Origin: Escherichia phage A4 | Strand: one strand, 5' to 3' | Sequence record: ON286972 | Length of the DNA stretch: 64,000 nucleotides | Shown here: positions 12,308-64,000 of the stretch, piece after piece | How positions within the stretch are numbered: position 1 is the first letter of the stretch | Layout: each line of letters begins with the position of its first letter | Notes under the pieces: model-generated | Told to the model about the DNA's origin: nothing | What the model saw: only the letters and a program-made list of their open reading frames with translations | Database searches by the model: none | Position numbers and translations under genes: made by a program

Positions 12308-12334
12308 CTGTTCAATGCAGCAACGAAGACCAAT

Positions 12335-13500: not shown

Positions 13501-14598
13501 ATGAATAATTATACTATATATCGCAGTGATGGAAGCGTTTATGCTTCCATTCCAAACAACGTTATCCTTGGTCCTAACCAACCAGGTACTAACCCAGTTC
13601 CTATTAACTTAGTTGGGCGTAATAAGGTTGGTTATGGTCAAGCATGGAACGAAAACTTTCTACACTTAGTTGAGCATTTTAGTGGTCCATCTGCACCACG
13701 TGGTAGTGTTAAAGGACAAATTTGGTATAAAAACACTGGTAACATTGGTGAACTACTTATTTCTCTAGTAGATAACGCTCGTCAACCAATAGACACTGCT
13801 TCTGAAGCAGATTGGGCATCAATCCCAATGATCACAATTTTCAACACCATCCCAGATGGCGAAAGTAGTGTTATGGGTCGTATGGTTTTGACAAATAACG
13901 GTGATTCACTCCGTGTTTTGATGAAAAACAAAGAATGGCGTGAAATTCAAACATCTCGTCCTGAAAACAAAGAATATTCATCACTATTGGATATAAACTA
14001 TGATTTAGGTAAAAAATATATTGAATTTACCCAAACTGAAAGTACTAAGACACTTGCATATTTCAACTTAGGTGGTGGTTCTAAGGTAGATCCAGACAAC
14101 TGGACATCATTTAGTAATGGTAATGGTGTTTTCCAATTCGGAAGTAACTATTTCTATGATTTGAAGATTATGATTCGTGAAGTACAGGATAGTACTGGTG
14201 AAGTTGTTTCTTTACCATTCAACTCCAAGACATTTATCATTAAAGGTCAATTCTATATTGACAATGAAGGTGCTTTTGTGCCAGGTTCTATACCATGTAG
14301 TGAGATTCCAGACCCACGTCGAATTACAAGTCTGGAAGTTATTAAAGATGTTATTACCAGTTCACAACCAACTTGGGATGTTAATATGGTAGTTAATGGT
14401 GTGGACCCAACAATTCCAAATCCAGGTGGAATGACGAAGACTGATTATGAAGCATGGGTTATCAACTCACTCAATACTAATAAACATTTAGGTTTCCGTG
14501 TTGATGGTTCAATTTCCGGTTTAGGAACTGGTCAAAGTGTTAAGCTTCAGGCTTCAGTACTGCTTAATATAACTGGTATTCCTATTATTGGTGTGTAA
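13501..14598 (+). CDS. hypothetical protein (possibly structural)
   Basis: 365-aa ORF with GGAG Shine-Dalgarno; followed by a strong bidirectional terminator. Confidence 0.3.
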   Translation: MNNYTIYRSDGSVYASIPNNVILGPNQPGTNPVPINLVGRNKVGYGQAWNENFLHLVEHFSGPSAPRGSVKGQIWYKNTGNIGELLISLVDNARQPIDTASEADWASIPMITIFNTIPDGESSVMGRMVLTNNGDSLRVLMKNKEWREIQTSRPENKEYSSLLDINYDLGKKYIEFTQTESTKTLAYFNLGGGSKVDPDNWTSFSNGNGVFQFGSNYFYDLKIMIREVQDSTGEVVSLPFNSKTFIIKGQFYIDNEGAFVPGSIPCSEIPDPRRITSLEVIKDVITSSQPTWDVNMVVNGVDPTIPNPGGMTKTDYEAWVINSLNTNKHLGFRVDGSISGLGTGQSVKLQASVLLNITGIPIIGV

Positions 14599-26300: not shown

Positions 26301-29300
26301 TGTACCAAATTTAGCATTAATTGCTGATGGGGTACAAGAAATGAATTCACCAGTACTCAATTGTTGTTGACTCCAGATTAAAAAGTCTTTTGCAATTGTA
26401 TTCCAGTCCTGTTGGATACCAGATTCATCAACTTCTTCAAAAATCCAACCATGTTGCTTTAGATACTCACCATAACCACAAATAAATGTGTAAACTTCCT
26501 GGAAGGTATTCATCAAAGTTCCGTAAGGAATGGATGCATCATTTTTCCACTCATTATAATGAACAACATTACGATTATCAACTTTCAAAGATACTTTATG
26601 ACCGTTTTTAACAGGCAATTTATAATTGAATGTTGCAGAAACTAAATCATAACCATCAATTTGGTAAGCACTACCAGTCCAAGTAATTTTAATTGCACTC
26701 ATTTGCTCATTTCTAATATTATTAGAACGAACTAAACCGATAGATTGGTTTTCTTGTGAAATTAGACCAGTTGCTTCTGATGTAAATGTTAATTGATCAG
26801 CTTTAGTGAATCCACCTAGTTTATGACCCACATTAATATGAGAAGAACGAACAATTTCACCGTACTTAGTTGTAATATTTTTGTTTTGATACATCAAATA
26901 ATCACTAACAATCATTTGATAACCAATAACGCGAGTACTATTCTCACCATGTACGATTGTATCACTATTAAAGTTCAAACGTAAACGAGTATCACCATAT
27001 AAAAACTGTGGTTCATTACCAGATACAGTTTTTAATGTATTATTTCGGGTATCCCAGAAATAGTTTGTGAACTGTGCAGGTTTAGCTTTGAATAACATCA
27101 ATAATTCATCATATGCAAACATTGCTGTGTTCATATAAGTGAATTCCATATCACCCATATCACCATAAGTCCACGGTTCAGCACGATGATTTAGACTACC
27201 ATATACAAGACCTAAAACTTCAGGAGCAATGTACTCAATGACGCAAATATCAACACCAGATGCTGTCTGCTTGCCTGTTTTAGTGATCTTAAAGGGTTGT
27301 GTACCAAAACGTTTGTACTTGTCATATTGACCTTTACGTGCACCAAACAAGATAGTACCCGTTGAGCTATCACCTTTCTCGTTACCAACGTCCCATAACC
27401 CACTAGGAACCATGTTACCTTGTTCGTTGATAACTAATGCCTCATAAACATAAACAACATCACCATCACGTTCGCCAACTTGAACTGCGGTAGGTTCATA
27501 TTCCTGGTTCCACCAAACTGGACGTTGGGAGAAACCAAACATTTCCCACGGATGGGTTGCTGGGCGATATGTACCAAATTGGTCAGTGTAGATTGCTCGC
27601 CATGAACCACGGGCTGCTATTTGTGTTTGTTGACCATTAACCATATAATGTGTTCCAGTATAGTTCCAAGTCATCCAGTTATTTGGATCATAATCATGTG
27701 AACTGTTACTGATACCATTGGTTGCGATGAAGTTAATATAACCACGTAGTAGTAAGTTCTTTTTCTCTTCGTCATTATACTCTGTATCTCTGAAATACGG
27801 AGTCGGGAAAAGATCAGAAGCATCTAGCTTAGGTTGGTAATCTTCATCTTTGAAAATAACATCAATACTATTGAAAATTCTATTTTCTAACTCATATATA
27901 ACGTCATCCATTTTATCAACACCGTTTATTACACGGTATGCTTTAGTGATTGCACCTGTATGACTGATGTTATAACAGCTTTGCTTACTACCAGCATTCA
28001 AAAATGTTGCTTTTTCTGGAACGTGTGCTTTCAAAATACCCAAAAACTGTGGAGTTGGTGGTACAAACGCACGAATGAAGCCAGAAGTACTTGCTACGTT
28101 ATCATAATAGAATGGGAAAGTATTATCATGACCCATATTAATAATTGTTAGAATTTCATCAACAATATTAGAAGCATTATTAGCTAAGAAGTTTGCTGGG
28201 TTCTCATTGTACAAACGGATCATTTGTGTATTGAACTTGTTTACGAAACGGAAATATTCGGATTGCATAAACAATACAGATTCAAATAGGTCAATATCTT
28301 CATTTGCAGAATGTGCCATTAACGGTAGCATTGATGCTTCGTTTTGAATAATCTTAGTACCAACGGAGTTATCCACTAAACCTTTAGACAAACGATCTTC
28401 GTAGTCGTTGAAATCATCAACGGAACCACTGGTGATATTCTTTTGAATGATATCTTTAAAATGTAATGTAAAATTACTTTGGTTGATATAAAGAATATTA
28501 TCGTTGTATGGGTTATTTTGTAAATTGATTGGGATTTCATATGCACCCAACTCTTTATTTGGTACTTCAGTACTGCTGTATGTTCTAATTTGAATCACTG
28601 ATTCATCTTTAAGAGCTACATCTTCACCTAAAGTGATGCTTTGAACCTTGTTATTATATACATGACGTGTATAATCGGTTACATCAACTCCATCAACTTG
28701 AATTTCAATGATTTCGGTACTCTTACCATCAATAATTTTCTGGGCTAATTCAAATGTGCGATTGAAACGTTCACTTTGAATACCTTCACCACTAATTACA
28801 TGCCAATCCATATAGGTTTGACGTTCTTCTTTGTAATATTGATAGGTACGATCCACTTCAGTAACATATGCATACATACCTTCTAATGGATTTTTAAAGT
28901 TTTCCATTTCGAATACAGTATTGAATACACGATACATATCAGTGTGTTCTATTTGTGGCGTTTGTTTAACGAATTGCTTTGAATCTTCCTTAGAACGAAC
29001 CCAATCGGTCTTAAGGTGTAGTTCATTATCTTTACCAACTACATTATAGTAGTACAATCCAGAAATTTCAGTTTCAACACCCAAATGATCATATGTATAA
29101 CGAACACTTTGTAGGAAGTTTTCGTACATATAGTAATTATAATTACCTAGTTCGATATTATAACCATATACTTTATCAGTGCCGTAATTATAGTTGATTT
29201 TAAAACCAAATAGGGATGAACCAACAAAATTACTTGATGGATAAATTGTAGAATCATTTAATTTAAAACCATCACGGTCATATAATTGGAATTGTGGGAA

Positions 29301-30347
29301 TACGTTTACACCAGATTTTGTTTGTGCTCTAATCCAGTTAACACCATTCCAGTACATGGATGTATTTTTATATACATTACCATCACGCACCAAAATAACA
29401 TCACCATTATGTGGCTCACCACTTGGGCGGTCGTCAGTTTCTTCATCTGGGTCCAATGCTAGACCATATGTGCGAGAACCATCTTGCATTTTCTTAATAA
29501 AAACTTTATAAATGCGGTTGTTTTCACCAACGTTACCTATACTAGTGAAAAGAATACGCATACCATCTTGTGGAATAATCCCGTCAATACGAATACCATC
29601 ATTTACGTCTTTTTGGACGATATCTTCTGGTTTAATTGTATCAGAGAAAAGATCCACAACACCACGGAAATGTGTCCCGTAGTTAATTAATTCGATATTT
29701 TTATTGTACTCGATGATTGGTGCTTGTGCACGAATAAAACGAGTATCTTGTGTCATGTCAGCAGTTAGTACTGTTCCATCTTCTAGTGTTTGACCAATAG
29801 TATACCAAAAGTTCTGTAGGGACCATGTGTTTCCGTTATCAGCACCACGTTCCATAACAATAAAGTCAGGAGTTGTGATACCATAACTATTTTTACTATC
29901 CCACAAATAGGAACTATAGTTGGTCATTTTGTTTGGGTTAATTGGCGGTGTCCAAGAATAGAACTTACCAGAAAATAGACGGCTCTCGTTTGAAGTTAAC
30001 GTGCCGTAGTGTTCCATGTAGCCAACCAAATCATCATAAAATTGAAGCGAACGAATGCTTGTGTCATCATTACGAGACACATATGCTGTTGATAATTGAT
30101 ATAGCTGACGTTCAACGGTTGCTTCGTCAAGGAAAATCTTAGCAGATGCAGCAGGAGAACCCATATCACCAATATATCCATCAACGATTTCATTATCCGC
30201 TGGATTGAACCATTGTTGAATTACATCATCACTAACCTTTTGAATGTCTTCTAAGCCTTGCATCCATTCAGGTAATCTTTTAATGAAAAGCTTCTGTTGT
30301 ACTGCTTCTGCCGTTTTAGTTGGTAGAAACTTAAAATTATTAGTCAT
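20370..30347 (-). CDS. giant baseplate-associated structural protein (at the T4 gp7 / P2 gpI position)
   Basis: ~3325-aa continuous ORF with no low-complexity repeats. Start moved from 30377 to the ATG at 30347, which has a GGAG Shine-Dalgarno 8 nt upstream; the 30377 ATG has none. Assignment by position after the gp25 and J-like genes only. Confidence 0.5.
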   Translation of the reverse strand: MTNNFKFLPTKTAEAVQQKLFIKRLPEWMQGLEDIQKVSDDVIQQWFNPADNEIVDGYIGDMGSPAASAKIFLDEATVERQLYQLSTAYVSRNDDTSIRSLQFYDDLVGYMEHYGTLTSNESRLFSGKFYSWTPPINPNKMTNYSSYLWDSKNSYGITTPDFIVMERGADNGNTWSLQNFWYTIGQTLEDGTVLTADMTQDTRFIRAQAPIIEYNKNIELINYGTHFRGVVDLFSDTIKPEDIVQKDVNDGIRIDGIIPQDGMRILFTSIGNVGENNRIYKVFIKKMQDGSRTYGLALDPDEETDDRPSGEPHNGDVILVRDGNVYKNTSMYWNGVNWIRAQTKSGVNVFPQFQLYDRDGFKLNDSTIYPSSNFVGSSLFGFKINYNYGTDKVYGYNIELGNYNYYMYENFLQSVRYTYDHLGVETEISGLYYYNVVGKDNELHLKTDWVRSKEDSKQFVKQTPQIEHTDMYRVFNTVFEMENFKNPLEGMYAYVTEVDRTYQYYKEERQTYMDWHVISGEGIQSERFNRTFELAQKIIDGKSTEIIEIQVDGVDVTDYTRHVYNNKVQSITLGEDVALKDESVIQIRTYSSTEVPNKELGAYEIPINLQNNPYNDNILYINQSNFTLHFKDIIQKNITSGSVDDFNDYEDRLSKGLVDNSVGTKIIQNEASMLPLMAHSANEDIDLFESVLFMQSEYFRFVNKFNTQMIRLYNENPANFLANNASNIVDEILTIINMGHDNTFPFYYDNVASTSGFIRAFVPPTPQFLGILKAHVPEKATFLNAGSKQSCYNISHTGAITKAYRVINGVDKMDDVIYELENRIFNSIDVIFKDEDYQPKLDASDLFPTPYFRDTEYNDEEKKNLLLRGYINFIATNGISNSSHDYDPNNWMTWNYTGTHYMVNGQQTQIAARGSWRAIYTDQFGTYRPATHPWEMFGFSQRPVWWNQEYEPTAVQVGERDGDVVYVYEALVINEQGNMVPSGLWDVGNEKGDSSTGTILFGARKGQYDKYKRFGTQPFKITKTGKQTASGVDICVIEYIAPEVLGLVYGSLNHRAEPWTYGDMGDMEFTYMNTAMFAYDELLMLFKAKPAQFTNYFWDTRNNTLKTVSGNEPQFLYGDTRLRLNFNSDTIVHGENSTRVIGYQMIVSDYLMYQNKNITTKYGEIVRSSHINVGHKLGGFTKADQLTFTSEATGLISQENQSIGLVRSNNIRNEQMSAIKITWTGSAYQIDGYDLVSATFNYKLPVKNGHKVSLKVDNRNVVHYNEWKNDASIPYGTLMNTFQEVYTFICGYGEYLKQHGWIFEEVDESGIQQDWNTIAKDFLIWSQQQLSTGEFISCTPSAINAKFGTDFGSVQSIAQNSGGVWSLLDDSNQGIRQFEIETSRIGNIFTVRTTEESNKRIALIRLSISSYEHAVIFDDQTIFGDYIYEPTYGAVQELIKLYGYITGSWSGRLQAPGFIILEAGTLPSFETLVSNFQQYYDNETPVSDVQLNELSNHLIGYQSRDYLQRMITNEPGRIDFYKGFIHDKGTNQVLEKVLRVSKSYNTDEYKALQEWAFRVGSYGNIDGVKNLQFKLINNEFKQQPQMITFDRYSDKVESENEIVYYGEIGEDSRWISRPKGKFSFPMRNGRSENIQLPNIGPVTLDEIDYTTLNYETANQDRISYMNNSGKIPTSVWMFQDINNEWNVYDLVDTGITMVSITPIESEDPYAEQYCKVLLSDDIPLNDGDYYYFVDETNFMPDALRDECQYYTSGLDPKVMVVPFDTSITIDFSTVESAPRLYRYVSRFSTQQERDEYIAKKYSYSAPESTLFDRPTTYDERTNITALYLNVFDPINGVIPGVAMQDVDFISPVDPAQYSSNGELLQAWGAEKVGKVWWNTSTAFYLDYTRPIFDEDGNVDVKATNEYKRYNWGKLLPHSVIDVLEWVSSPVEPYNWEKYCAEQANKNKNNTMYLPSGIAMDENYSSSMEYDPITDTYVVRYYFWVRNTIYVPPMTTRSKSCTDIARIIQDPTQLNVPWFAPINENSFILSNMQFEVNDDTSILTISYRNDNIEVLKHDQYQLCKEGDSYDFNPDIWNSLWNSLIGQETTSTGVVNEIIYPKVETGLGSNKTWFQNVIEARRAFVESANNFYRSQNITTNSVVMNDVFNVKTLKMNPNDITFRVLSFNNELVIAPEDNRFKENDAVFVSSIGTLPAPLSSSSVYFVHIDPNGYIQLMNSPSAVGSTVTITLENRGEGQHKMIKQADFIESLGTSLDMTQYWNLADWYDTGYDSNTEYTQEVSLDDANTKNYQIGDIIRVTDSDGVWTLYIKTASRNNIYWKAIGRENSTVELNSMLYSGYNVYNDDGSLNSHEVNVRNALALLKNSFNLYQSNIVFDMVKYVHTEQSVVDWVFKTSYIYIVGLEQSLVQNYSNDNLINQIVEYFEEVKPYRTKIRSQIEQKTSDDDLINGISNDLDPDGYILVDGVWVKTEKDIWDLEYAQFNDVTQRWEKIGSLPSDFITPNRRFQEIDVIMHYDNIQCDPYDSNYTIDELKSTNSKYQSNASDIGNDYELQRYVYTFPEYDNNTLISQIGIEMTTKYSDLDISNGVIKGIDAWYKAHSTDIAMTDQFTADLEQVTADTNNSNILEDVKKYIQYNTLATRVKMFKNISDDMVSNEIGCPFKGTNYNDNPNTRLPFGFSASSDYNYGYFEISIELYEKYVDMIKKNHPEFTNEDQVRNILEIEYGVYCYKYDTTLNDRYYSDTVHVLSAMRQTFNKNILDHYYVAREILSNRAVDKYAFVMMPRKYVYVVNAAGEYLPIPESYSISDFMEDLFITTGESVVLAEIDLNDLPQDQNNPMYSAYVEVLESINTAKYFNDMNAFDNLALESQTKSIKWEVKDSEIDPYIIDISELNPSGRTMAQLRFTVDGYGFDEVAQEQLKDTSRFQIEGMIVQNPYNMSEAVVSIPSYDIVIENMGKDVFKESEKYFFPISEIKTITEIKVHDEGLKDGDKVMIFTPDGEDYVRFQDGNWVTILSASKIQSSKKPKLYTVRVLGNGNVELVDSNGVVLMFDSITKRESNERFYTLSMNLVRIRTFQDPEFDDNGLKLYENNRHYSIHALNYEVFYDETLYGGKFNDGITPDEIDLWLVSNEIFEVDGITIDNGYNQPISGKGVLGELVRAKMTDGIEITVFEYDVDVIQPVLSYDRVWQYAQPVVNNTFIKEVGCGVINITTVEDEAITYVAKPRSISPYIITDSVLSGAAAQNDDIIVVGYEKVQVRNTDRLLRGVMYSAEHNFTKGTSYSFNGLNLGSIDKFTQYQNFYPPIPLDTFRNGLSITGTDIENLLNIQ

Positions 30348-30380
30348 GTATAGGACTCCATAAATTCGTTCATTCATTTG

Positions 30381-39749: not shown

Positions 39750-40064
39750 TTAACCTACACTGCGTGTACCATTCAGGTATGCTTGAATGCGTTGACTTGA
39801 AGGTATTCTAATAGTTATACCAGTTTGAAAGTTGTAAATAGGGTCTTCACCCAATAAATCAGGGTTAAGTAATGCAAATACGTAATACAAACGCTCATTG
39901 CCATACATTTCATACGCTAAACGCCACGGTTGGTGGTTGTACTTTGCAGGTATTTCATAAAAATCATCAGTATCTGCTGGAATTATGTCACGAGGTAATG
40001 TATAATCCAGATACCATGTTTGTTTAACTTTTGCATAAGGTGAATATTGACTATAGTTTGACAT
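39750..40064 (-). CDS. LysM-like small baseplate protein (tail protein X-like)
   Basis: 104-aa ORF; YEIPAKYNHQPWRLAYEMYGNERLYYVFALLNP...GITIRIP fits a LysM-like fold as in P2 gpX / T4 gp53. Confidence 0.45.
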   Translation of the reverse strand: MSNYSQYSPYAKVKQTWYLDYTLPRDIIPADTDDFYEIPAKYNHQPWRLAYEMYGNERLYYVFALLNPDLLGEDPIYNFQTGITIRIPSSQRIQAYLNGTRSVG

Positions 40065-40822
40065 TAAATGAATCCTCCATTGCGAAGCATATCACCACGC
40101 TTAAATGCGTTAAGATTAAACTTCTTAGTCATAAATTCTGATGTTGGTTGCTCTTCTAATTGAATAGTTACAGATATCTTTTGTGGAACCCACACTTCAT
40201 CTTGTGGATTCATGTACCCAGAACTTCTTAATTGTTCAAAAAATTGTCTACTATCCATATCGGACAAATTAAAAGTACTGTTACTACTATCCAATGGTAC
40301 TTGAATATAAGAAACATCATTTGGATAGGTAAAATTATATGATTTCATTACTACAGGAATATCATTATATGTATAACGACCATACCCACTTAGTAATAGG
40401 ATTGGTGGTGGTGCACCAGGAACAGCTAAATCGGGGTTATTAGCTGATGCAGCTTTTCTACCAAAATCCATCAATGATACAGAGCGAATAAAATGCATAC
40501 ATGCTAAAGTGTATAGAGCTTCAGCAGCAGTATTTGCATAAAATTCACCTTGTATCGTGAAAATAGTATTACTTGTATTTTTATAGTTGTTATAGTTACT
40601 ATTTGAATGCACAGGAGACTGTGTTTCATACTGAATACTTCTTTGTTCAGTGATTGTTGGCGTTACGGTCCATACCAAACCATTGGTTGGACGCAAAAAC
40701 GATAGTAGTGTTGGGTTGGCTCCGTCACCAAAATCCCCATACACATAGTTAGCACCAGCGGCTTTAGGTCTTAGTCGGATTCGACGATCAATCATTTGTG
40801 TTACTCCATTACAAGGAAACAT
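40064..40822 (-). CDS. hypothetical baseplate protein
   Basis: 252-aa ORF, first gene of the minus-strand baseplate operon. Confidence 0.3.
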   Translation of the reverse strand: MFPCNGVTQMIDRRIRLRPKAAGANYVYGDFGDGANPTLLSFLRPTNGLVWTVTPTITEQRSIQYETQSPVHSNSNYNNYKNTSNTIFTIQGEFYANTAAEALYTLACMHFIRSVSLMDFGRKAASANNPDLAVPGAPPPILLLSGYGRYTYNDIPVVMKSYNFTYPNDVSYIQVPLDSSNSTFNLSDMDSRQFFEQLRSSGYMNPQDEVWVPQKISVTIQLEEQPTSEFMTKKFNLNAFKRGDMLRNGGFI

Positions 40823-40839
40823 TTGAAGTATTTATAGGT

Positions 40840-48076: not shown

Positions 48077-50248
48077 ATGGCTGTAAACAACAGTGATTAC
48101 TTACTACAACAGATAGTGAATAAATCTAATGATACCGTAGATGGTCTTTCAGCTATACGTGAATTGTTAGCAGAAAGTTTAAAGAATGATAAAAAGAAAA
48201 ATAATGGTGGTGGTAACCCATCACCTGGCGATTCATCTGGACCAAGTGGTGGTGGACGCGGTTCTCGTGGTAATTCATCCTCTATGGGTAAAATGTTCAG
48301 AGCAATGTCCAGCGAAATGACAAACGTTGGTAAAACAATGATGAGTACTTCAGCGAATGTCAGTACTGTCATTAACTCAATGGGTATGAGTGCATCATCC
48401 GTAGCTGGCTCTCTTTCTATGATCCCTGGTCCTGTAGGAATGGCAGCATCAGCATTTAAAATGGTTGCTGATGTAGGGATGGCAGTATATAACGTAATGA
48501 ACGCCCAGCTTGAAATGTACAACAGAGTCAACAGTGCGGGTGTTTCTCTTGCTGAAGGTTATGGCTCTTTGCTAAAAGGTTCAGGTTCAGCGTTAATGTC
48601 TATGGATCTATTCAGTGAAGTAATATCAACTCATAGTGATGTTATTGCACAATTGGATGGTTCGTATGGAGATGGCGTTAAGGAATTTGGTAAATTGTTA
48701 GGTGTAGTTCAAAATGCCCAAGATAAACTTGGCCTATATGGTATGTCACAAAAAACTTTATCAGATTTAGCAGCACGTAACATCAAAATTCAAAAACAAT
48801 TTGGTGGTGCAGAACTAGTAAGGAATATAAACCAAGCACAAAGTACCCAAGAGTTAATTAAAACTATGTCTACTTTTAGTAAGACAATGGGTATGTCAAT
48901 TGATGAATTACTTAAAAAGACACAATCACTTGATAAATCATTTGATGCAAGAATACTAAAAACTACACTAAACAACTGGGTGGGACTATCAGAAGAAACC
49001 GCAACATTAACCACTAAAGCACTTACCGAAGCGGCAGGTGGTATGGGGGATATGGGTACTGATTTCCTAAGATTGATTAGCCACAGAATATCAATTGGTG
49101 GTGTTCCTGATGATTTATTATCTCCAATGATTAGCGAATTCGCTGACCTTGGTGAGAACATGGTTAAGTCTGGTGTAACCGATGCAAAAGCTATACGTGA
49201 AGCACAATATCAGTGGGTGAAGAAAAACAGAAAACGCGTTGAAGCAGATATGGAAGATATGCAACGAAGTCAAAACTTCACCGCTGCCGCATTTGCTAAG
49301 CAAATGTTAGATATGGAAGCTGCAATTAATGCTGACAAAAATCGACCAGCAGATAAAATCGCAGAATTTACTGATAGATTGAACAGATGGGTCAGTACTG
49401 AATTTGTTGCTCCATTCAATAAAATGTATGCTGATGTTCAAAATAATGTTGTTGATTATTTGACAGCAATTGCAGATCGTACCGATAGTGCATGGGGATT
49501 TATTTGGGAATTGGCTAAAGATGGATTTGGGTTAGTTCCAATATTCAAGGATGCGGTTTCTTATGTTGACCGTATTGGTAACGAATTTGTATTATGGCTT
49601 GAGGGATTGGGTTCTGACATATTTGGGGACACATATACTCAAGTTTCAAAAGCATTCGATGACTTCATGAAGAATCTCATGGATTTACCTGGAAAGTTAT
49701 GGGATAAAGTAAAAGGATGGTTTGGTTCAGATGATAAATCTGAAAAACAAGAAGAACCTAAAAAGAAAATAGAAGAGAAAGCTACATCTTTCTGGGATTC
49801 TATTGGTAATTCAGTAGACGATTTCACAAAATTTGTAGAAGAAAAAACACTTGACTTCCAAAAATGGAAATCTTCTAAATTATATACACCACCTAGACCA
49901 TTTAACGTAGATAATGCATATCGAGTCTTGGGCTATGAACCACCTAAAAACGTCCAGACTACAGTAATGCCAAATACACCACCTATGATGGAATTAACTC
50001 GTAAACATTATGATAAATCCGCATGGAAACCTGGTGAAGCACCATTCCCACCAGAACCAGATCGTGATATAAAATCTCTGGTAACGCCTCAAAACGGAAC
50101 TATAAATAATGACATGAGTTCAGAAGAGATCAAAGAAATTTTTAAACGTCTAGCAGAAATGAGTGAACAATCACTCGCAGCAACAAATCAGACAAATAAT
50201 TACTTAAGAACAATTTCTGAAAATACACAAGGTGAACGCAATAGTTAA
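48077..50248 (+). CDS. hypothetical virion protein (Gly/Ser/Met-rich N-terminus)
   Basis: 723-aa ORF immediately upstream of portal; late promoter motif upstream. Confidence 0.4.
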   Translation: MAVNNSDYLLQQIVNKSNDTVDGLSAIRELLAESLKNDKKKNNGGGNPSPGDSSGPSGGGRGSRGNSSSMGKMFRAMSSEMTNVGKTMMSTSANVSTVINSMGMSASSVAGSLSMIPGPVGMAASAFKMVADVGMAVYNVMNAQLEMYNRVNSAGVSLAEGYGSLLKGSGSALMSMDLFSEVISTHSDVIAQLDGSYGDGVKEFGKLLGVVQNAQDKLGLYGMSQKTLSDLAARNIKIQKQFGGAELVRNINQAQSTQELIKTMSTFSKTMGMSIDELLKKTQSLDKSFDARILKTTLNNWVGLSEETATLTTKALTEAAGGMGDMGTDFLRLISHRISIGGVPDDLLSPMISEFADLGENMVKSGVTDAKAIREAQYQWVKKNRKRVEADMEDMQRSQNFTAAAFAKQMLDMEAAINADKNRPADKIAEFTDRLNRWVSTEFVAPFNKMYADVQNNVVDYLTAIADRTDSAWGFIWELAKDGFGLVPIFKDAVSYVDRIGNEFVLWLEGLGSDIFGDTYTQVSKAFDDFMKNLMDLPGKLWDKVKGWFGSDDKSEKQEEPKKKIEEKATSFWDSIGNSVDDFTKFVEEKTLDFQKWKSSKLYTPPRPFNVDNAYRVLGYEPPKNVQTTVMPNTPPMMELTRKHYDKSAWKPGEAPFPPEPDRDIKSLVTPQNGTINNDMSSEEIKEIFKRLAEMSEQSLAATNQTNNYLRTISENTQGERNS

Positions 50249-53890: not shown

Positions 53891-53902
53891 CATTTTAAAA
53901 TT

Positions 53903-53918
53903 ATAAATATTTGTATAT
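53903..53918 (+). promoter_or_regulatory. late-promoter-like motif before scaffold gene
   Basis: ATAAATATTTGTATAT, then ATTTCAGTACT leader and AAAGGAG Shine-Dalgarno. Confidence 0.5.
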
Positions 53919-55169: not shown

Positions 55170-56345
55170 ATGTCACAACTACTAAATGAATCCAAATGGG
55201 TAGCAGTTAAAGAGAAACTAGTTGAAGGTCTTCAAGGTACTCGTAAATCCGTAATGGAAACCGTTCTTGATAACCATCGTAAAGTTATGCTACAAGAATC
55301 TGCAACCGCTGGTGCAACTTCTGCTGGTAACATCGCTACTCTAAACAAAGTGATTCTACCAATTATGCGTCGTGTAATGCCAACCGTTATCGCTAACGAA
55401 ATCATCGGTGTTCAACCAATGACTGGCCCAGTTGGTCAAATCCACACTCTACGTGTTCAATACGCTGACAACGCACCAGGTGTTGTAGCTGGCGAAGAAA
55501 TGCTATCTCCATTCAAGATTGCTAAATCTTACACTGGTGAGCTAAACTCTGACAACAGCAACCCACAAGCTGCTCCTACTAGCCAACTAGAAGGTACTAT
55601 GGGTCGTCGCGTTAACATCCGTATCCTACGTGAAACTGTTGAAGCGAAATCTCGTCGTCTATCTGCACGTTGGACTGTTGAATCTGCACAAGATGCACAA
55701 TCTCAACATGGTATCGACGTTGAAGCTGAACTAATGGCTGCTATCGCACAAGAAGTTACCGTTGAAATCGACCAAGAACTACTAAGCCGTCTACGTGCTC
55801 TACCAGGTGCTGCTGCTGTAACTTATGACCAATCTAAAGTAACTGGCGTTGCTACTTTCGTTGGTGATGAGCACGCTGCTCTAGCTACCCTAATCAACCG
55901 TCAAGCGAACGAAGTTGCTCGTCGTACCAAACGTGGTGCTGCGAACTGGGCTGTTGTTTCCCCAACCGCTCTAACTATTCTACAATCTGCAACTACTTCT
56001 AGCTTTGCACGTACTACTGAAGGTACTTTTGAAGCACCAACTAACGTTAAATTCGTTGGTACTCTAAACAGCACCATGCGTATCTTTGTTGATACCTACG
56101 CAAGTGACGTAGAAGATATTCTAATTGGTTATAAAGGTAATGCAGAAACTGATGCTGGTGTATTCTATTGCCCATACATCCCACTAATGGCATCTGGTAC
56201 TGTTATGGACCCTAACACTGGAGAACTCGTTACAACTTTCTTAACCAGATACGGGTATGTTCAGTTGACCGATAGCACCAGTTCACTAGGTAACGCTGCG
56301 GACTACTACAGCAAAATCGCTATCAAAAACGTTACTTTCATGTAA
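55170..56345 (+). CDS. gp23: major capsid protein gp23-like
   Basis: IANEIIGVQPMTGPVGQ, VEAKSRRLSARWTVESAQDAQSQHGIDVEAEL and GYKGNAETDAGVFYCPYIPL align with T4 gp23; strong terminator follows. 391 aa versus 521 in T4. Confidence 0.9.
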   Translation: MSQLLNESKWVAVKEKLVEGLQGTRKSVMETVLDNHRKVMLQESATAGATSAGNIATLNKVILPIMRRVMPTVIANEIIGVQPMTGPVGQIHTLRVQYADNAPGVVAGEEMLSPFKIAKSYTGELNSDNSNPQAAPTSQLEGTMGRRVNIRILRETVEAKSRRLSARWTVESAQDAQSQHGIDVEAELMAAIAQEVTVEIDQELLSRLRALPGAAAVTYDQSKVTGVATFVGDEHAALATLINRQANEVARRTKRGAANWAVVSPTALTILQSATTSSFARTTEGTFEAPTNVKFVGTLNSTMRIFVDTYASDVEDILIGYKGNAETDAGVFYCPYIPLMASGTVMDPNTGELVTTFLTRYGYVQLTDSTSSLGNAADYYSKIAIKNVTFM

Positions 56346-56474: not shown

Positions 56475-57581
56475 ATGCCAAAAGTAAGTATCGACAAAGA
56501 AAAATTCATTGAAGAGATGAACAACAAGTATGGAGCATATGGTGAATTTGATTTCAGCACTTTAGTATTCAAAGCCAGTAAGACAACAGTTAAATGTAAT
56601 AAATGCGGAAAAGAAAATACTAAACCTGCACTACGTCACATTTCATGTACATGTTCTTCATGTTATTCAAACATGTCACAGCGTTCGAACAACGAAAAAT
56701 TTATCAGCACGGTAGAAACTAAATTTGGAAAAGATAAATTCAAATTTGATAAACTAAATTACATTAACGCTATAACAAAAGTAACAATACTCTGTACAGA
56801 CGAAGAACATAACGATTACTTTGAAATTACACCAAACAAATTTCTTACTGGTAAGGGATGTCCTATATGTAATAAAAATGAAGCATACAGTACTGAAGAA
56901 TTCGTAGAAAAAGTAAAAGAAAATTATGGTGATTCATTAGATTTAACTAACACAGTATATGTAAATCAAAAAACTAAAGTAACTGTGTATTGTAAAGCGG
57001 GTAACCATGAATGGACAGTTGATCCGAAAACTTTACTTGTTGGTAAGACTGGTTGTGGTACATGCTCCGGTAAAGGTGGTCGCAGTACTGAACGTTTCAT
57101 TGAACTGGTATCACCTATCCATAACCATAAGTATGATTATAGTTTGGTTGAATATACTATAAGCGAGAATTATGTTGATATTGTATGTCCAACTCATGGT
57201 GTTTTCTCCCAACAACCAAAAGCACATATGGCTGGTAAAGGATGCCCATCATGTGGTGAATATGGATATCAGCCATCAAAACCTGGATATTTCTATGTTC
57301 AAAAACTAACTAATAAAGATAAGACAGTGTACAAGTATGGAATCACTGGCGATATGAAACGCCGTGTAAATGAGCAAAGTCGTCATTCTGATTTTGAACA
57401 CACTGTACTGGTAGAACGTTACTTTGAAGATGGTCATAAACCCTTAGTACTGGAAAAGTTTTTGAAACAATACATTGATAGTGGTGTAGTAACTACTGAA
57501 GAGTTGCCATCAGGATTCACAGAAACTTTTGATGCTAAGTATCTTGAAACAGTACTGGAGATTGTAAATACATTTGAATAA
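56475..57581 (+). CDS. zinc-ribbon repeat protein with C-terminal GIY-YIG-superfamily-like domain (putative free-standing endonuclease)
   Basis: Four ~60-aa modules each ending in a Cys pair (CNKCGKEN / GKGCPICN / GCGTCSG / GKGCPSCG), then GYFYVQKL...YKYGITGDMKRRVNEQSRH; motif reading only. Confidence 0.45.
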   Translation: MPKVSIDKEKFIEEMNNKYGAYGEFDFSTLVFKASKTTVKCNKCGKENTKPALRHISCTCSSCYSNMSQRSNNEKFISTVETKFGKDKFKFDKLNYINAITKVTILCTDEEHNDYFEITPNKFLTGKGCPICNKNEAYSTEEFVEKVKENYGDSLDLTNTVYVNQKTKVTVYCKAGNHEWTVDPKTLLVGKTGCGTCSGKGGRSTERFIELVSPIHNHKYDYSLVEYTISENYVDIVCPTHGVFSQQPKAHMAGKGCPSCGEYGYQPSKPGYFYVQKLTNKDKTVYKYGITGDMKRRVNEQSRHSDFEHTVLVERYFEDGHKPLVLEKFLKQYIDSGVVTTEELPSGFTETFDAKYLETVLEIVNTFE

Positions 57582-57986: not shown

Positions 57987-58295
57987 ATGTCACAAATATG
58001 TTATGTAATCACTAATAGTGCATGGCCTGAATATGTAAAGATAGGCTTCACTACAAAATCAGAGATGAAAGAGCGTTTAGGTGTTTATCAGACAGCTTCA
58101 CCATTCAGGGATTTTGAGGTATACCATCAGGTTATGTTTGACGATGCACGAACAGCAGAAAAGGAAGTGCATAAGAGATTAAAGCAAATGAATGCAACAA
58201 GGCAACCTAACTCTGAATGGTTCAAGATGCCTAAAAAGTTAGCTGCAAATATTATTGATTCCGTATTGGATGATATGGAAAATGATTTACTATAG
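57987..58295 (+). CDS. T5orf172 / GIY-YIG-like domain protein
   Basis: CYVITNSAWPEYVKIGFTTKSEMKERL...VH..L...EWF fits the T5orf172-type GIY-YIG pattern; GGAG Shine-Dalgarno. Confidence 0.55.
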   Translation: MSQICYVITNSAWPEYVKIGFTTKSEMKERLGVYQTASPFRDFEVYHQVMFDDARTAEKEVHKRLKQMNATRQPNSEWFKMPKKLAANIIDSVLDDMENDLL

Positions 58296-58335
58296 ATATA
58301 AATATGATATATATTAAACAAAAAAGGATTTTTAC

Positions 58336-59946
58336 ATGAGCATAAGTTTTAATCATCCACAGAATACTGTAACCAGTACTGCGGAAAATGGTTCATTGAA
58401 TCTAATAGTACTAGGTGGTACACCAACTAATCCTCGACCAATTAGAATGAATTCTTCATCGGTAATACTACCTGTTCAGGATTTACCTATTGGTGAAGCA
58501 GGGGCGATAGTATTTGACAAAAACACTCTTACTTTGAAGTATCATGATGGTACGAACTGGATTGAAATGTTAAGTGCTGCCGATGTAGTTGCACCAATTG
58601 AACAACAGATTCAGGATATCAATTCTATACTTGGAACTAAGGTTGATAGAGTAACCTATTCAATGTCATCAATTCCAACTGCTTCTATTAGCGGAACTAC
58701 ATTGAATATTATATTCCCAACACCTTCATCAATTCAAGGAGCTAATGGTTTGTACACGAGTGCTAAACCTGGATGTATTATGCATTATAGCTTGACATCT
58801 GGACAAACCGTTGCTAGTATACGTGAACAAATGTCGGGTAGTACTGGTGGACAGAGTGGTCGTGACGGCTCCCAAGCTAAACCGTGGAAAACATCCGATG
58901 GTTGGTGTTTTGCTGATGGTATGTGGTGGCAGTGGCAAGGTGCTAATGGTACAATAACCAAACAAGTACCAAACTTGAACCGTGATGGATATTTAAGAAG
59001 TATCACCACTAGTGGTATAACCAAAACTGACGCAATTATTGCAGGTGGTGGTTCATTAACACCGAGTACTTTCACTATTCCAGACCACATTCATGGGACT
59101 GGTAAAATGTTAGGTACTAACGGTAGTGATGCGGATGATGCTGTTTTCATTAGTGGTAGAGCATGGAATGATGGCAGAGGCTATCGTGGTCCTGCAATCT
59201 TTGGTGATAAGAATGCCCGTATGGAGTTTAGTGTAGATGGTAATAATGCAGCAACTGCATTATCAACTTCACAACCAATTTATGATGATGCGAATGCCCG
59301 CACAATAACCCATAACCATACAGTAACAGGTATTGACGTACCACACTTTAACACTGCAATTTTGTATAACATTTCCGAACCATCAGTTGCGATGAGCGAA
59401 AATACTGCAAATGATCGTTTTGTTCGTAAAACTGGTGATACAATGTCTGGTGAATTATACATTGCTAACCGTGCTGGTATTCGTGGTGGTGGTGATTTGT
59501 ACTTATTCTTCCAGAACGCTAGTGGTGGTGAACGTGCAGCAGTATACTTCCAAGGTAATGAACTAAGACTTCGTGCTGGTGGTGGTGCTGTAACAGTTAA
59601 CAGTGGTGGTTCTTTGTATATTCCAGGTTCATTAACAGTTAACGCAGCATCAGCAACTGTCGGAACGAAACATATAGTACGTTCTGTTAACGGCTCAACT
59701 GCTGGTTCTGATGGTAATGTAAATATATCTGTCGGATCAGTACAAGATGTACGTTTTTTCAATCAAGATTATTATTGGCCGGGTGGTAATGAGTTATCAT
59801 GGCACTTTGTGTGTCCATCAGGTGCAGTACTAAGTGGTATAAATGTACAAGATGTTGGTAAAAACTCTGCTGATAACATTGGTGGTGTGAATTATAAATT
59901 TATACAAATTTTGGTTGATGGTAGCTGGAGAAATATAAACGGATAA
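58336..59946 (+). CDS. tail fibre protein
   Basis: DRFVRKTGDTMSGELYI fibre hallmark plus Gly-rich beta repeats; N-terminus MSISFN mirrors MTISFN of the collagen-like fibre protein. Confidence 0.5.
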   Translation: MSISFNHPQNTVTSTAENGSLNLIVLGGTPTNPRPIRMNSSSVILPVQDLPIGEAGAIVFDKNTLTLKYHDGTNWIEMLSAADVVAPIEQQIQDINSILGTKVDRVTYSMSSIPTASISGTTLNIIFPTPSSIQGANGLYTSAKPGCIMHYSLTSGQTVASIREQMSGSTGGQSGRDGSQAKPWKTSDGWCFADGMWWQWQGANGTITKQVPNLNRDGYLRSITTSGITKTDAIIAGGGSLTPSTFTIPDHIHGTGKMLGTNGSDADDAVFISGRAWNDGRGYRGPAIFGDKNARMEFSVDGNNAATALSTSQPIYDDANARTITHNHTVTGIDVPHFNTAILYNISEPSVAMSENTANDRFVRKTGDTMSGELYIANRAGIRGGGDLYLFFQNASGGERAAVYFQGNELRLRAGGGAVTVNSGGSLYIPGSLTVNAASATVGTKHIVRSVNGSTAGSDGNVNISVGSVQDVRFFNQDYYWPGGNELSWHFVCPSGAVLSGINVQDVGKNSADNIGGVNYKFIQILVDGSWRNING

Positions 59947-59949
59947 TTT

Positions 59950-60405
59950 ATGATAACTTTAAAAAATTTTAAATCATATGAAGGTAATGACCCTAAATTA
60001 AAAAAATTAAATGTTGCTTTTTTAATTTCAGAATGTGGAATGGATTGGTATGATTCTCAAAAATTATTTTCCGAAAATACAATGAAAATTGTGGTTGATA
60101 AAAATAATATAGTTTGCAATGCAACACGTGATATTACTATGATGTATCCAGTGGATGCTAGTGTATATGAAATTGAATATGATGGTGATGGACATGAACT
60201 AAGAGGAAAAATATATCATGAAGAAGATGGCACTTTTTCTGAAAGACCACCTCGTAAACCTACCCCACAACAAATATTCAATGATTTGAGTGAACGTAAA
60301 AAAGTACTGGACATGAAGAAAGAATTCGATATGTTGAGCACTGAAGAAGCTGCTGAGTACGAGAAGCTAATCTCTGATCTTAAAGAAGTACTAAATCTAC
60401 TATAA
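59950..60405 (+). CDS. hypothetical protein (possible fibre assembly chaperone by position)
   Basis: 151-aa ORF immediately after a fibre gene; 13-bp-stem terminator follows. Confidence 0.3.
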   Translation: MITLKNFKSYEGNDPKLKKLNVAFLISECGMDWYDSQKLFSENTMKIVVDKNNIVCNATRDITMMYPVDASVYEIEYDGDGHELRGKIYHEEDGTFSERPPRKPTPQQIFNDLSERKKVLDMKKEFDMLSTEEAAEYEKLISDLKEVLNLL

Positions 60406-60413
60406 TACATAAA

Positions 60414-60453
60414 ATAGACATACTACTCATTTAGGTAGTGTGTCTATTTTTAT
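60414..60453 (+). terminator. rho-independent terminator
   Basis: 13-bp stem ATAGACATACTAC/GTAGTGTGTCTAT (one wobble) then TTTTTAT. Confidence 0.6.
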
Positions 60454-60605
60454 CCCTTTAAATTGGATGTATTTTTATTAAATTAAAATAAATATCAATG
60501 CTTATGTACAGAGTAGAAAACTATTAAGTACAGTGCTCTATTTTGTTTATAAGTTTTTTTATTTTATTTTTAATAATTTACAGTCAAAAGAGGGGTTTTA
60601 TATAC

Positions 60606-61103
60606 ATGTTAATTTATAGAGGTTGGGAACAGTATTATCCAGAATCTGAATATTCATTTTCATTTTATAGAGATGAAAATGGCAATGATTGGTATGAATT
60701 GCGTGATGAATTAATGAAATTGTCCAATGTTTGTGGTTTTCTTGTAGCTTATCGCGGGGATGGAGATCCAAATAATAATTACATCGCCAGTGCTAGTTCG
60801 GAAATTGATAGACTCTCTCCTGTAAATCATGATTTGTATATTGTAGATATAAGTATCATACCTGATGATTTCTTAGAGAATCCGTGGAATTATATGTTGT
60901 ATAATGATACAATAGTTCCAAATGCAATCATGCGACAACAAGAAATAGACATGGCAGTTCGTTGGGCTGATGAAGAAATCAAGATGCTAACGACCCCACG
61001 CTTACTTCAAGCTTATCTAGCAGAAGTTCGTGCATACCGTGCAGAACTGTTGGCAATAGATTTAAATGAAACCCCATTTATTGATTTACCATTCAGACCA
61101 TAA
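60606..61103 (+). CDS. hypothetical protein
   Basis: Track ORF begins at a TTG (60543) in AT-rich spacer; ATG 60606 has an AGAGGGG Shine-Dalgarno and is taken as the start. Confidence 0.35.
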   Translation: MLIYRGWEQYYPESEYSFSFYRDENGNDWYELRDELMKLSNVCGFLVAYRGDGDPNNNYIASASSEIDRLSPVNHDLYIVDISIIPDDFLENPWNYMLYNDTIVPNAIMRQQEIDMAVRWADEEIKMLTTPRLLQAYLAEVRAYRAELLAIDLNETPFIDLPFRP

Positions 61104-61110
61104 AATTTTT

Positions 61111-61138
61111 GGGACACATTGAGAAGTACTGATATAAT
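61111..61138 (+). promoter_or_regulatory. sigma70-like promoter upstream of the polymerase block
   Basis: GGGACA-N16-TGaTATAAT. Confidence 0.45.
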
Positions 61139-61205
61139 AGAGACATTCCACGAGGAACATTGTGGAGTGTCTATTTTTTTTTCATTAACACATGGAGATA
61201 CAACA

Positions 61206-61593: not shown

Positions 61594-64000
61594 ATGTATA
61601 TCGATGCTTATATGGAACGTAAACGTACTGGTGATATTCTTCATGTAGTTGAACGTAAAAACGGGAAGCGTATTCTCCGTGAACTGGAGCCAGTATTTGA
61701 GTATTATGTAGAATCACCATTAGGTACACACAAAACTGTATATGGTACAATGGCACAACATCTTGAGTTTTCTTCACAGGCTCAAATGAATAAAAGCGTA
61801 GAGCAACACAAAAGTGAAGGTCTACGAATTTTTGAAAGTGATTGTAACATTACGTTTAAAACGTTAGCGAAAGAGTACATGGGTAAGGGTTCTCCTGACC
61901 TTAACATTGCATTCTTCGATATCGAAACAGACTTCCATAAGAAGTTTGGGTATGCACCACCATCAGACCCGTTCAACCGTGTAACTGCAATTTCTTTGTA
62001 TCAATCATGGACTGGTAAGGATTATGTTTTAACACTTCCTCCAGTTGACATGGAAATTTACGAAGCACAAGACATTGTTCGACGTTTGAACGAAGAGACA
62101 AATGATCCTAACAGTACTGTCATCCTTTATACGGATGAAAAAGAAATGTTTATGGAATTCTTTAGTCTTATTGATGATTCTGATGTATTATCAGGGTGGA
62201 ATAGTGAGTTCTTTGATATTCCATACATGATTAACCGCACAAAGAAAATCTTCAATGAAGCAACCACTGCTCGTTGGTGCTTGTGGAATAAGAAGCCTAG
62301 TGCTCGTGAAGCAGATAACTTTGGTAAAACTGTAGTAACCTATGATTTAGTTGGTCGTGTTCACTTAGATTATCTTGCTCTTTATAAGAAACATGCTGGT
62401 CAAGTTGAACAATCATATAAACTAGATTACATTGCAGAGAAAGTAACTAAAGAGAATAAAGTATCTTATGAAGGTTCTTTGGATAAACTATATCGTGAAG
62501 ATTACATTACCTTCTTGCGTTATTCTAAGCAGGATAGTATTCTTCTGAAGAAAATTGATGCTGTATGTGACTTTATCAACCTGCACAACCGTCTTGCTCA
62601 TAAAGAGTGTGTACTAATTAGTACTACAATGGGTTCGGTAGCTCTGATTGATACTGCAATTATTAACCTTGCACATAGTCGTGGTGAAGTGGTATTCAAC
62701 AAAGCACCTAAAGATGATTTTGAAGTTGATTATGAAACAGAATCATATGAAGATGAAGATGATGAAGCAGATGAGAAAATTAGTGCTAAAGCTGCTGGTG
62801 CATGGGTACAAGATCCAGTACTAGGTTTGGTGAGTGATTTGGGATGTACTGACTTTAACTCACTGTATCCAACTGTACTTCGTACACTTGGTATGAGTAC
62901 TGAATGCATTCTTGGTCAACTTCGTCAGGATTACACTGATGCGTATCTTGCTGCTAAAATTCAAGAGCAAAAGGCCAAATCCAAATCGAAATCATTCGAA
63001 CCAGACTGGACTGCTGCATGGCATGGTTTGTTTGCTGCTGTTGAGTTTACAATGGTTCATGAGAAATCAGATCAAACGATCATTGTTGATTTGGAAGATG
63101 GAAGTTCTTTCCAGGCGACAGGTAAAGAGTTGTATGATATAATCTTTGCCGAGGACAGTACTATTGTTCTAAGTGCTAACGGAACACTATTTGACAAGTC
63201 TAAGTATGGTGTAATTCCAGACATTCTAACTCAATGGTATTCTGAACGTAAAGCACAACAAAAGATGGTAATTGATTACAAACACATGTATAGTGATGGT
63301 TGGGAATTTAATGGTCATGAGAAAGTTGAACCACTTCTATCCAACTATACTCCTGGTACAATGTTCCGCACCAACTTACATGAAAATGATCCTGTTTATC
63401 TATTGCGTATTGCAATTGGTAAAGGTCAATGGGAAGATGTAGCTAAACTAATTGTTGAAAATGGTTTAGAACTAAAAGACGGAAGAATTTTCTGTTCTAA
63501 AGAAGATAAAGCATATTTCAAACAACAAAGTGCATTCTGGAAACAGAACCAGCAGATTCGTAAGATTCTTCTAAACAGTCTATATGGTGCACTATTGAAC
63601 AAAGGTTCACGTTTCTTTGATAAGCGTTTGGGTCAGTCTGTTACCTTAACTGGTCGTTCTATGACTAAACACATGGCGAGTCGTATCAATGAAATTACAA
63701 CTGGTGTTTACAATCACCAGGGTGGTTCTGTAATTTATGGCGATACTGACTCCGTATACTTCAGTGTAACCCATTACTTGAAAGAACAAGGTATTCCGTA
63801 CAATCTATCTAAAGAAGAAATTGTTGATATGTACATTAAAATTGGTGATGAAGTTGGTGAGTCCTTCCCATCTTTTATGCATCAGATGTTCAACACTGGA
63901 ATTGAGAAAGGTAAGATTGTAGGTGCTGACCTTGAGATGGTAGGTTCTCGTGGATTGTTCCTGAAGAAGAAACGTTATGCAATTCTGAAGTACTGGGAAG
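61594..64000 (+). CDS. gp43: DNA polymerase gp43 (family B), partial, 3' end beyond window
   Basis: Exo I FFDIETDF, Exo II SGWNSEFFDIPYM, motif A CTDFNSLYPT, motif B KILLNSLYG, motif C YGDTDS; aligns with T4 gp43. Confidence 0.95.
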   Translation, partial: MYIDAYMERKRTGDILHVVERKNGKRILRELEPVFEYYVESPLGTHKTVYGTMAQHLEFSSQAQMNKSVEQHKSEGLRIFESDCNITFKTLAKEYMGKGSPDLNIAFFDIETDFHKKFGYAPPSDPFNRVTAISLYQSWTGKDYVLTLPPVDMEIYEAQDIVRRLNEETNDPNSTVILYTDEKEMFMEFFSLIDDSDVLSGWNSEFFDIPYMINRTKKIFNEATTARWCLWNKKPSAREADNFGKTVVTYDLVGRVHLDYLALYKKHAGQVEQSYKLDYIAEKVTKENKVSYEGSLDKLYREDYITFLRYSKQDSILLKKIDAVCDFINLHNRLAHKECVLISTTMGSVALIDTAIINLAHSRGEVVFNKAPKDDFEVDYETESYEDEDDEADEKISAKAAGAWVQDPVLGLVSDLGCTDFNSLYPTVLRTLGMSTECILGQLRQDYTDAYLAAKIQEQKAKSKSKSFEPDWTAAWHGLFAAVEFTMVHEKSDQTIIVDLEDGSSFQATGKELYDIIFAEDSTIVLSANGTLFDKSKYGVIPDILTQWYSERKAQQKMVIDYKHMYSDGWEFNGHEKVEPLLSNYTPGTMFRTNLHENDPVYLLRIAIGKGQWEDVAKLIVENGLELKDGRIFCSKEDKAYFKQQSAFWKQNQQIRKILLNSLYGALLNKGSRFFDKRLGQSVTLTGRSMTKHMASRINEITTGVYNHQGGSVIYGDTDSVYFSVTHYLKEQGIPYNLSKEEIVDMYIKIGDEVGESFPSFMHQMFNTGIEKGKIVGADLEMVGSRGLFLKKKRYAILKYWE

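Follow-up and report, generated by a model that had tools for sequence, protein, structure and literature searches.

Genes and features of the locus

We analysed a 64,000-nucleotide stretch of DNA from Escherichia phage A4 (sequence record ON286972), hereafter the window, which has a G+C content of 36%. Our subject is a tail-fibre gene at positions 58336-59946 on the plus strand, which probably encodes a baseplate receptor-binding fibre of a type already known from the RaK2-like group of phages, here with an exchanged tip. The features of the fibre gene and its surroundings are as follows.

58336-59946 (+): tail-fibre open reading frame (ORF) of 536 amino acids with an ATG start; the protein begins MSISFNHPQNTV
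58336-58353 (+): codons of the fibre hexapeptide MSISFN (ATG AGC ATA AGT TTT AAT)
58336-59040 (+): conserved N-terminal half of the fibre (residues 1-235), the presumed virion-attachment and shaft part, with most alignment columns identical to phages BF17 and 121Q
59041-59946 (+): divergent distal half (residues 236-536), with HxH motifs at residues 251 and 326, the motif GDTMSGELYI and a tip resembling that of P2 gpH
59950-60405 (+): Tfa-type tail-fibre assembly chaperone gene, 151 amino acids (phrog_136, E 5e-25)
60606-61103 (+): second Tfa-family gene, 165 amino acids from an internal ATG (phrog_136 over its full length, E 1e-13)
58297-58304 (+): putative T4-type late promoter TATAAATA, 32 nucleotides 5′ of the fibre start codon
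53959-55077 (+): scaffold gene, upstream of both the capsid gene and the fibre gene
55170-56345 (+): gp23-type major capsid protein gene (Pfam Gp23, E 5e-90)
61594-64000 (+): family-B DNA polymerase gene, continuing past the end of the window

The coordinates agree with the initial annotation, which had described a 536-residue ORF carrying GDTMSGELYI between the head genes and the polymerase, about 46 kb from the main fibre locus; the exact distance to the gene for a 375-residue protein at 11138-12265, with which the fibre had been compared, is 46,071 nucleotides. The motif occupies fibre residues 367-376 (nucleotides 59434-59463), and a search of all six frames of the whole window with G[DGN]TM[ST]G returned this copy alone. 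Across 107 homologues there is no variation at G367, D368, M370, G372 or L374.

Orthology and conservation of the locus

By nucleotide comparison the source of the window is an Asteriusvirus-like Escherichia coli jumbo myophage, its DNA being 85-90% identical over the head genes to the Asteriusvirus jumbo coliphages (BF17, 121Q, PBECO4 and others). The profile phrog_13229 ('tail fiber protein') covers residues 1-534 of the fibre (E 7e-216). In tblastn searches the protein is 51% identical to 121Q gp607 and its relatives over 100% of its length, and 56% identical over residues 1-465 (87%) to RaK2 gp098 and phiK64-1 S2-8, which are identical proteins. There are 135 homologues at E ≤ 1e-5, and the 120 listed all have E ≤ 6e-102. 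On these comparisons the fibre is an orthologue of 121Q gp607 and RaK2 gp098 (= phiK64-1 S2-8). The full-length PHROG match and the orthology to RaK2 gp098 uphold the original assignment as a tail fibre.

In 121Q and BF17 the capsid gene is followed, in turn, by genes for an endonuclease, a hypothetical protein, a GIY-YIG protein, the fibre, Tfa, another hypothetical protein and the polymerase; the order in RaK2 is similar, but without a Tfa gene. The position between a gp23-type capsid gene and a gp43-type polymerase gene, outside the fibre cluster, is kept in relatives, and none of the relatives examined has an orthologue inside its main fibre cluster. The separate location that had been pointed out is therefore real, but it is a fixed trait of the RaK2-like group rather than a peculiarity of this window, and the description of the gene as an extra one does not stand. 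The practical consequence is one of annotation: the gene should carry the label of a baseplate receptor-binding fibre of the gp098/gp607 type in place of that of an unexplained additional fibre.

RaK2 gp098 shares with the window fibre its start (MSISFNHPQNT), locus, conserved N-terminal half and GDTM.G motif, whereas its tip is of the Gp53-like_C type (PF21882) and no Tfa gene follows it. The fibres of 121Q (gp607) and BF17 (QXN76327) are closer in setting, with a genus-level backbone, the same gene order, similar N-terminal 235 residues and a downstream Tfa gene (gp608 in 121Q). They differ from the window in overall identity (51-54%), in the tip (35% identical) and in having one Tfa gene, not two.

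In the window, the interval from capsid to fibre holds a gene for a 368-residue endonuclease-like protein, an ORF of 116 amino acids and a 102-residue T5orf172/GIY-YIG-like gene, in that order. Two T5orf172/GIY-YIG-like endonuclease-type genes (56475-57581 and 57987-58295, both +) separate the capsid gene from the fibre gene; 121Q and BF17 keep the pair, and the equivalent site in RaK2 is occupied by an endonuclease gene. On the 3′ side the fibre is followed by two small ORFs and a 129-residue ORF before the polymerase gene.

An intact orthologue of 536 amino acids also lies unannotated in the phAPEC6 record MK817115.1 (~137511-139121), where only a 49-residue ORF, gp221c, is listed. The published phAPEC6 virion proteome therefore could not have reported the fibre, and we dropped its absence from that proteome as a sign of a non-structural role.

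Mosaic structure of the fibre

Fibres usually combine a conserved virion-proximal part with an interchangeable receptor-binding tip. By blastn the window DNA matches 121Q and BF17 at 72% up to 59030, in patches from there to ~59760 and not at all between that point and 61173, where an 83% match begins. The break at 59030 and the return at 61173 show the replacement of a cassette of ~2.1 kb (59030-61170) that holds the distal 300 residues of the fibre and the chaperone region. Family and gene position being already known, the novelty is confined to the allele.

Over the last 110 residues of the fibre, identity is 52-60% with the tips of phage 19-1-2, Rac-SA53 (Rac prophage), P2 gpH and phAPEC8-type phages but only ~35% with the Asteriusvirus orthologues. 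In tblastn, residues 469-534 are 56% identical to P2 (E 1e-14), and the match to Rac-SA53 is at 53% (E 1e-19). The tip (59746-59946, +; residues ~469-536) is thus closer to those of small coliphages than to its own Asteriusvirus orthologues. This likeness indicates that the tip was exchanged with those circulating among small coliphages, so that jumbo phages and small temperate coliphages share one pool of fibre tips. Other members of the family carry either Gp53-like_C tips (RaK2 type) or the self-cleaving chaperone Peptidase_S74 (Yersinia and Erwinia types).

Structures were modelled as monomers, and the proteins are almost certainly trimers. In the AlphaFold2 model of the fibre (mean predicted local distance difference test, pLDDT, 75.9; predicted template modelling score, pTM, 0.35) the N-terminus is extended, residues 81-100 form a helix, several beta domains are present and the C-terminus is a beta-sandwich. 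Among PDB structures, Foldseek ranked the chaperone-bound Mu tail fibre first for this model (5yvq_A, E 1e-5, probability 0.99), and 8ju3 was also among the top matches.

The fibre modules of P2 (gpH/gpG), Mu (gp49/gp50), P1 (S/U) and Rac prophages resemble the window in the 40-60% identity of the last 70-100 residues and in the Tfa PHROG downstream, and the Mu gp49-gp50 complex is the best fold match just described. They differ in that the remainder of the window fibre is unrelated to gpH/gp49, that the window has no invertible segment and that the virion concerned is that of a T4-like jumbo myophage, not of a P2- or Mu-type phage.

Tail-fibre assembly chaperones

Both marks of a Tfa-dependent fibre tip are present, namely a gpH/gp49-like C-terminal tip and an adjoining Tfa gene. 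The first 89 residues of the 151-residue Tfa are ~40% identical to 121Q gp608, the BF17 Tfa and a P1 fibre-region protein. Public contigs with exactly this fibre carry both Tfa genes, the second being called as 165 amino acids. A single Tfa gene occurs in 121Q, BF17 and L048, a phage with an 82%-identical fibre, and it is the first Tfa that L048 keeps. Since the first Tfa is retained beside related fibres and the second is not, the product of 59950-60405 is probably the cognate chaperone of the fibre tip and the second gene (60606-61103) probably accessory.

The N-terminal hexapeptide and the 375-residue protein

The fibre had been linked to the following protein of the main fibre locus by the similarity of their first residues.

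11138-12265 (-): virion tail protein of 375 amino acids, beginning MTISFNNGSGGS (MTISFN); its gene heads a minus-strand run of fibre and spike genes

PHROG 13565 ('tail protein') covers this protein from end to end, and full-length homologues of 42-98% identity occur across the group; its orthologues are 121Q gp574, RaK2 gp062 and phAPEC6 gp253. For the last of these (40.99 kDa), virion proteomics returned 14 unique peptides that cover 65.6% of the sequence (PMC7247149, Table 1); RaK2 gp062 was not detected by mass spectrometry (PMC3622015). The calculated mass of the window protein is 40.76 kDa. Its AlphaFold2 model (pLDDT 80.4) consists of small beta modules between short Gly-X-Y runs, with two repeat modules and a C-terminal jelly-roll that resembles capsid-decoration and carbohydrate-binding modules. 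The Gly-X-Y runs are all short (7 triplets at residues 227-247), and the Pfam Collagen match (E 0.01, 16 bits) is under the 27.2-bit cut-off; 'collagen-like' would be a valid label only for these short stretches.

Both translations confirm the starts MSISFN and MTISFN, and [ST]ISFN occurs in just two ORFs of the window, these two. BLASTP of one protein against the other gave no N-terminal alignment. Full-length profile-profile comparison (hhalign) likewise gave nothing N-terminal, its only match being a spurious one of 10 columns (probability 1%). When profiles of the N-terminal 30, 60 and 100 residues were compared, they aligned over 27 columns with pairwise E of 1e-4 to 2e-3, but with residues 1-6 left out the values were E 0.3-0.9 and probability < 0.2%. 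We therefore rejected an extended shared N-terminal domain: judged by these alignments, MSISFN/MTISFN is a six-residue identity and not a shared domain. PDB sequence searches with the full profiles and with the N-terminal 67-78 residues returned nothing useful, and the literature on baseplate structure of RaK2- and 121Q-type phages offered, besides the unrelated phiKp24, just a map of the phAPEC6 tail at 25 Å.

The chance level of such matches was estimated in 121Q, over 215 of its 348 kb (the parts below 100 kb and above 230 kb) and 241 ORFs of at least 100 amino acids. Six pairs of ORFs share four of the five residues at positions 2-6, five of them without evident relationship, and column shuffles give an expectation of 3.6 ± 1.9 pairs. 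For the 53 window ORFs of that size this scales to ~0.17 expected chance pairs, falling to ~0.006 if the comparison is restricted beforehand to ~10 fibre-like proteins. The bare match is thus not significant unless it was restricted in advance to fibre-like proteins. In the window and the same part of 121Q, the only ORFs starting M[STA][IV][SFRT][FS]N are gp607, gp574 and the MAVFSN pair gp572/gp573. The common attachment site on the virion that had been read into the two N-termini is not supported by this comparison: the likeness stops at residue 6 and is within chance genome-wide, and the initial annotation had itself named similarity limited to a few residues, and not significant, as grounds for refuting the idea.

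The window does hold a true shared N-terminal domain, between a 723-residue and a 300-residue protein (110 residues, 39% identity, E 3e-18), which is probably a common anchor domain. The two proteins, a colanic-acid-degrading spike (8953-11124, -) and a virion protein (8033-8935, -), both start MAVFSN, and the pair is kept in 121Q as gp573 and gp572. The same idea, one N-terminal element reused for attachment, is seen in CBA120 TSP1-4 and RaK2 gp526-534. In all of these systems the anchors are folded domains of 50-110 residues or more with detectable homology (PMC10253068), whereas MSISFN/MTISFN amounts to six residues; no domain-length N-terminal homology was found between the fibre and the 375-residue protein.

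Within each family the motif is strongly kept. Nearly all of the 120 fibre homologues start MSI[SR]FNH[PA], and 60 homologues of the 375-residue protein start MTISFN or a near variant; apparent exceptions to the latter are upstream start-codon miscalls, with MTISFN nine residues downstream. The hexapeptide is the most conserved hexamer of both family alignments (121 members for the fibre), and all 13 IMG/VR genomes with both genes show both motifs. No co-variation of the two motifs was found in these 13 genomes, the fibre clade with Arg in place of Ser4 (S4R) keeping an MTISFN partner. Conserved N-termini are not peculiar to these two families: in other genes of the group, starts such as MALRSK and MNEAVGAIFLSK are shared by the window, 121Q and RaK2.

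At the codon level, Ser4 is always AGT in the fibre family (AGA in the Arg variants), whereas the 375-residue family uses TCA throughout, so that the identity is kept at the protein level and does not stem from a recent DNA copy. In the window no codon from 2 to 6 is the same in the two genes, and together with the disjoint Ser4 codons this rules out a shared DNA element or recent duplication. The mean codon entropy of the first codons is nevertheless well below that of other columns conserved in amino acid: 0.40 vs 1.08 bits in the fibre family and 0.35 vs 0.99 bits in the 375-residue family. The first codon run ranks 2nd of 106 and 1st of 142, respectively, for low synonymous variation. The suppression spans the first 6-8 codons (58336-58359, +; 12242-12265, -; and orthologues), which indicates that selection near the start codon is directed in part at the nucleotides themselves.

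Late-promoter-like motifs

Exact copies of TATAAATA are under-represented in the window, with 4 found against 9 expected.

40829-40836 (-): TATAAATA, directly upstream of the minus-strand ORF 40064-40822
50101-50108 (+): TATAAATA
53902-53909 (+): TATAAATA, 50 nucleotides upstream of the same-strand scaffold gene
58297-58304 (+): TATAAATA, the copy before the fibre gene listed above

Three of the four are upstream of same-strand ORFs. For the gene of the 375-residue protein there is GATAAATA at 12301-12308 (-). The placement of TATAAATA is compatible with T4-type late promoters, which suggests that the fibre is transcribed late. In the relative 121Q, a late sigma factor gene occupies the corresponding position.

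Role of the fibre and meaning of the hexapeptide

RaK2 gp098 has been found in virions, and antibodies to its C-terminal part lower plating efficiency (Noreika et al. 2023, PMC10253068). In immunogold transmission electron microscopy the label was at the baseplate, chiefly on particles with contracted tails, and not on the long fibres (PMC10253068). From these experiments gp098 is reported to be an essential protein of the baseplate, and the authors concluded that it serves as a secondary receptor-binding protein after the depolymerase gp531 has cleared the capsule; they proposed an analogy with T4 gp12, a trimer mounted on the baseplate, concealed before contraction and required for irreversible binding (PMC10253068). 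Homology of the window fibre to gp12 was not found: it has no Pfam match and no PDB sequence match at E ≤ 1, and gp12 is absent from the Foldseek list, where the only T4 fibre is gp34 (E ~0.7).

We conclude, with a probability of about 0.72, that the ORF at 58336-59946 is a baseplate receptor-binding fibre of the RaK2 gp098/121Q gp607 type with a swapped tip, and that the hexapeptide likeness to the 375-residue protein is a coincidence, partly brought about by nucleotide constraint. Orthology with RaK2 would place the fibre at the baseplate and give it the secondary-receptor role. Its gene would be transcribed late from its own TATAAATA promoter, and the protein would trimerise, with the Tfa chaperone folding the C-terminal tip. 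The conserved N-terminal half would anchor the trimer beneath the baseplate. Long fibres or spikes would engage surface polysaccharide first, after which the window fibre would bind the secondary receptor, leading to irreversible adsorption. A joint swap of the distal half and the chaperone would retarget this step, and the cassette at 59030-61170, comprising distal half and chaperones, would be the obvious determinant of the secondary-receptor step in host range.

Several points weigh against this conclusion. The baseplate role is borrowed from RaK2 gp098, a protein just 56% identical and with a different tip. Pfam at E ≤ 0.01 gave no match for the fibre or either Tfa. The Foldseek TM-scores are low, at 0.13-0.21 (0.13-0.18 for 5yvq_A), as is the pTM of the fibre model given above, although low TM-scores are expected for a single chain taken out of a trimer. 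Against a coincidence stands the conservation of residues 2-6, which is 5th highest of 531 in the fibre family and 4th of 370 in the other. The motif is kept in the most distant members (MAISFN in XaC1, at 45% identity), and substitutions leave positions 3 (I/L/M) and 5 (F/L/I) hydrophobic, the pattern of a buried beta-strand face. Moreover, the N-termini have low confidence in the monomer models, with pLDDT of 60-67 for the fibre and below 50 for the 375-residue protein, as might be expected of a segment that orders only on a partner.

Three other explanations were considered. The one that fares best, though we regard it as doubtful, is a constraint on translation start alone, in which A/T-rich codons 2-6 (ATGA..AT....TTTAAT) are kept for initiation on late mRNA and the similar peptides are a by-product. 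The low codon entropy of the first codons in both families agrees with it, as do the G+C content of the window and the identity of the two consensus sequences at 14 of the first 21 nucleotides, including TTTAAT at +13 to +18. However, consensus codons 2-4 differ (AGT ATA AGT vs ACA ATT TCA), so that no single nucleotide motif exists there, and a broad tendency towards A/T-rich starts would not hold specific residues constant across such divergence. Synonymous sites also look more conserved than they are because of codon bias at 36% G+C.

A shared docking peptide is less probable still, and we consider it unlikely. After removal of Met, the [ST]-I-S-F-N strand of both trimers would insert by beta-strand addition into equivalent baseplate sockets, or the two N-termini would pair. 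The conservation ranks, the hydrophobic alternation that survives substitution and the unstructured or low-confidence N-termini of both models, given above, would fit such a peptide, as would the presence of both motifs in 13 of 13 paired genomes and even behind miscalled starts. In the 375-residue family the motif is an island, with a variable Gly/Ser/Asn-rich stretch behind it; the disjoint Ser4 codons show identity held at the protein level; and both proteins are, through their orthologues, virion tail proteins (PMC10253068; PMC7247149). Yet six residues match and none beyond, the chance expectation of such matches is not small, and the two families do not co-vary, the S4R clade keeping MTISFN. 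Part of the conservation is at the nucleotide level, as the suppressed synonymous variation shows, and conserved N-termini occur in other genes too. Finally, the known shared anchors, in the window as in RaK2 and CBA120, are whole domains (PMC10253068). If true, the docking motif would be a very small handle for grafting foreign fibres and a concrete feature to seek in baseplate maps.

Slightly less probable again is the general form of this idea, that a portable six-residue N-terminal 'plug' mounts both unrelated trimeric fibres in equivalent baseplate sockets, or on each other, in all RaK2/121Q/GAP32-type jumbo phages. It would mean attachment by a short linear motif, not by the folded anchor domains of other branched fibre systems. 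Our preferred reading remains that the likeness is most simply a coincidence of two conserved N-termini, partly via nucleotide constraint on the first codons.

The remaining explanation, that the window fibre is the distal part of the long tail fibres, joined to proteins of the main cluster, and not a short baseplate fibre, is the least probable and we think it improbable: it can point to the annotation as 'tail fiber' (or 'Long tail fiber protein p37' in Yersinia phage fHe-Yen9-04) and to a P2 gpH-type tip, as on the long fibres of P2, Mu and P1, but in RaK2 the immunogold label marks the baseplate of mostly contracted particles and not the long fibres (PMC10253068), and the gene lies outside the fibre cluster in every relative examined.

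Other observations in the window

Two further observations concern the baseplate and tail genes. A ClpA-like ATPase gene (18050-20335, +) lies inside the baseplate/tail module, adjoining the gene of a 3335-residue virion protein (20370-30377, -), and both genes are also present in 121Q (gp581 and gp582). Lastly, the N-terminus of a 365-residue virion protein (13501-14598, +) contains ...GYGQAWNENFLHLVEHF..., which may resemble the N-terminal motif of baseplate adaptors of the T4 gp9/gp10 type; this protein is a candidate for fibre docking.

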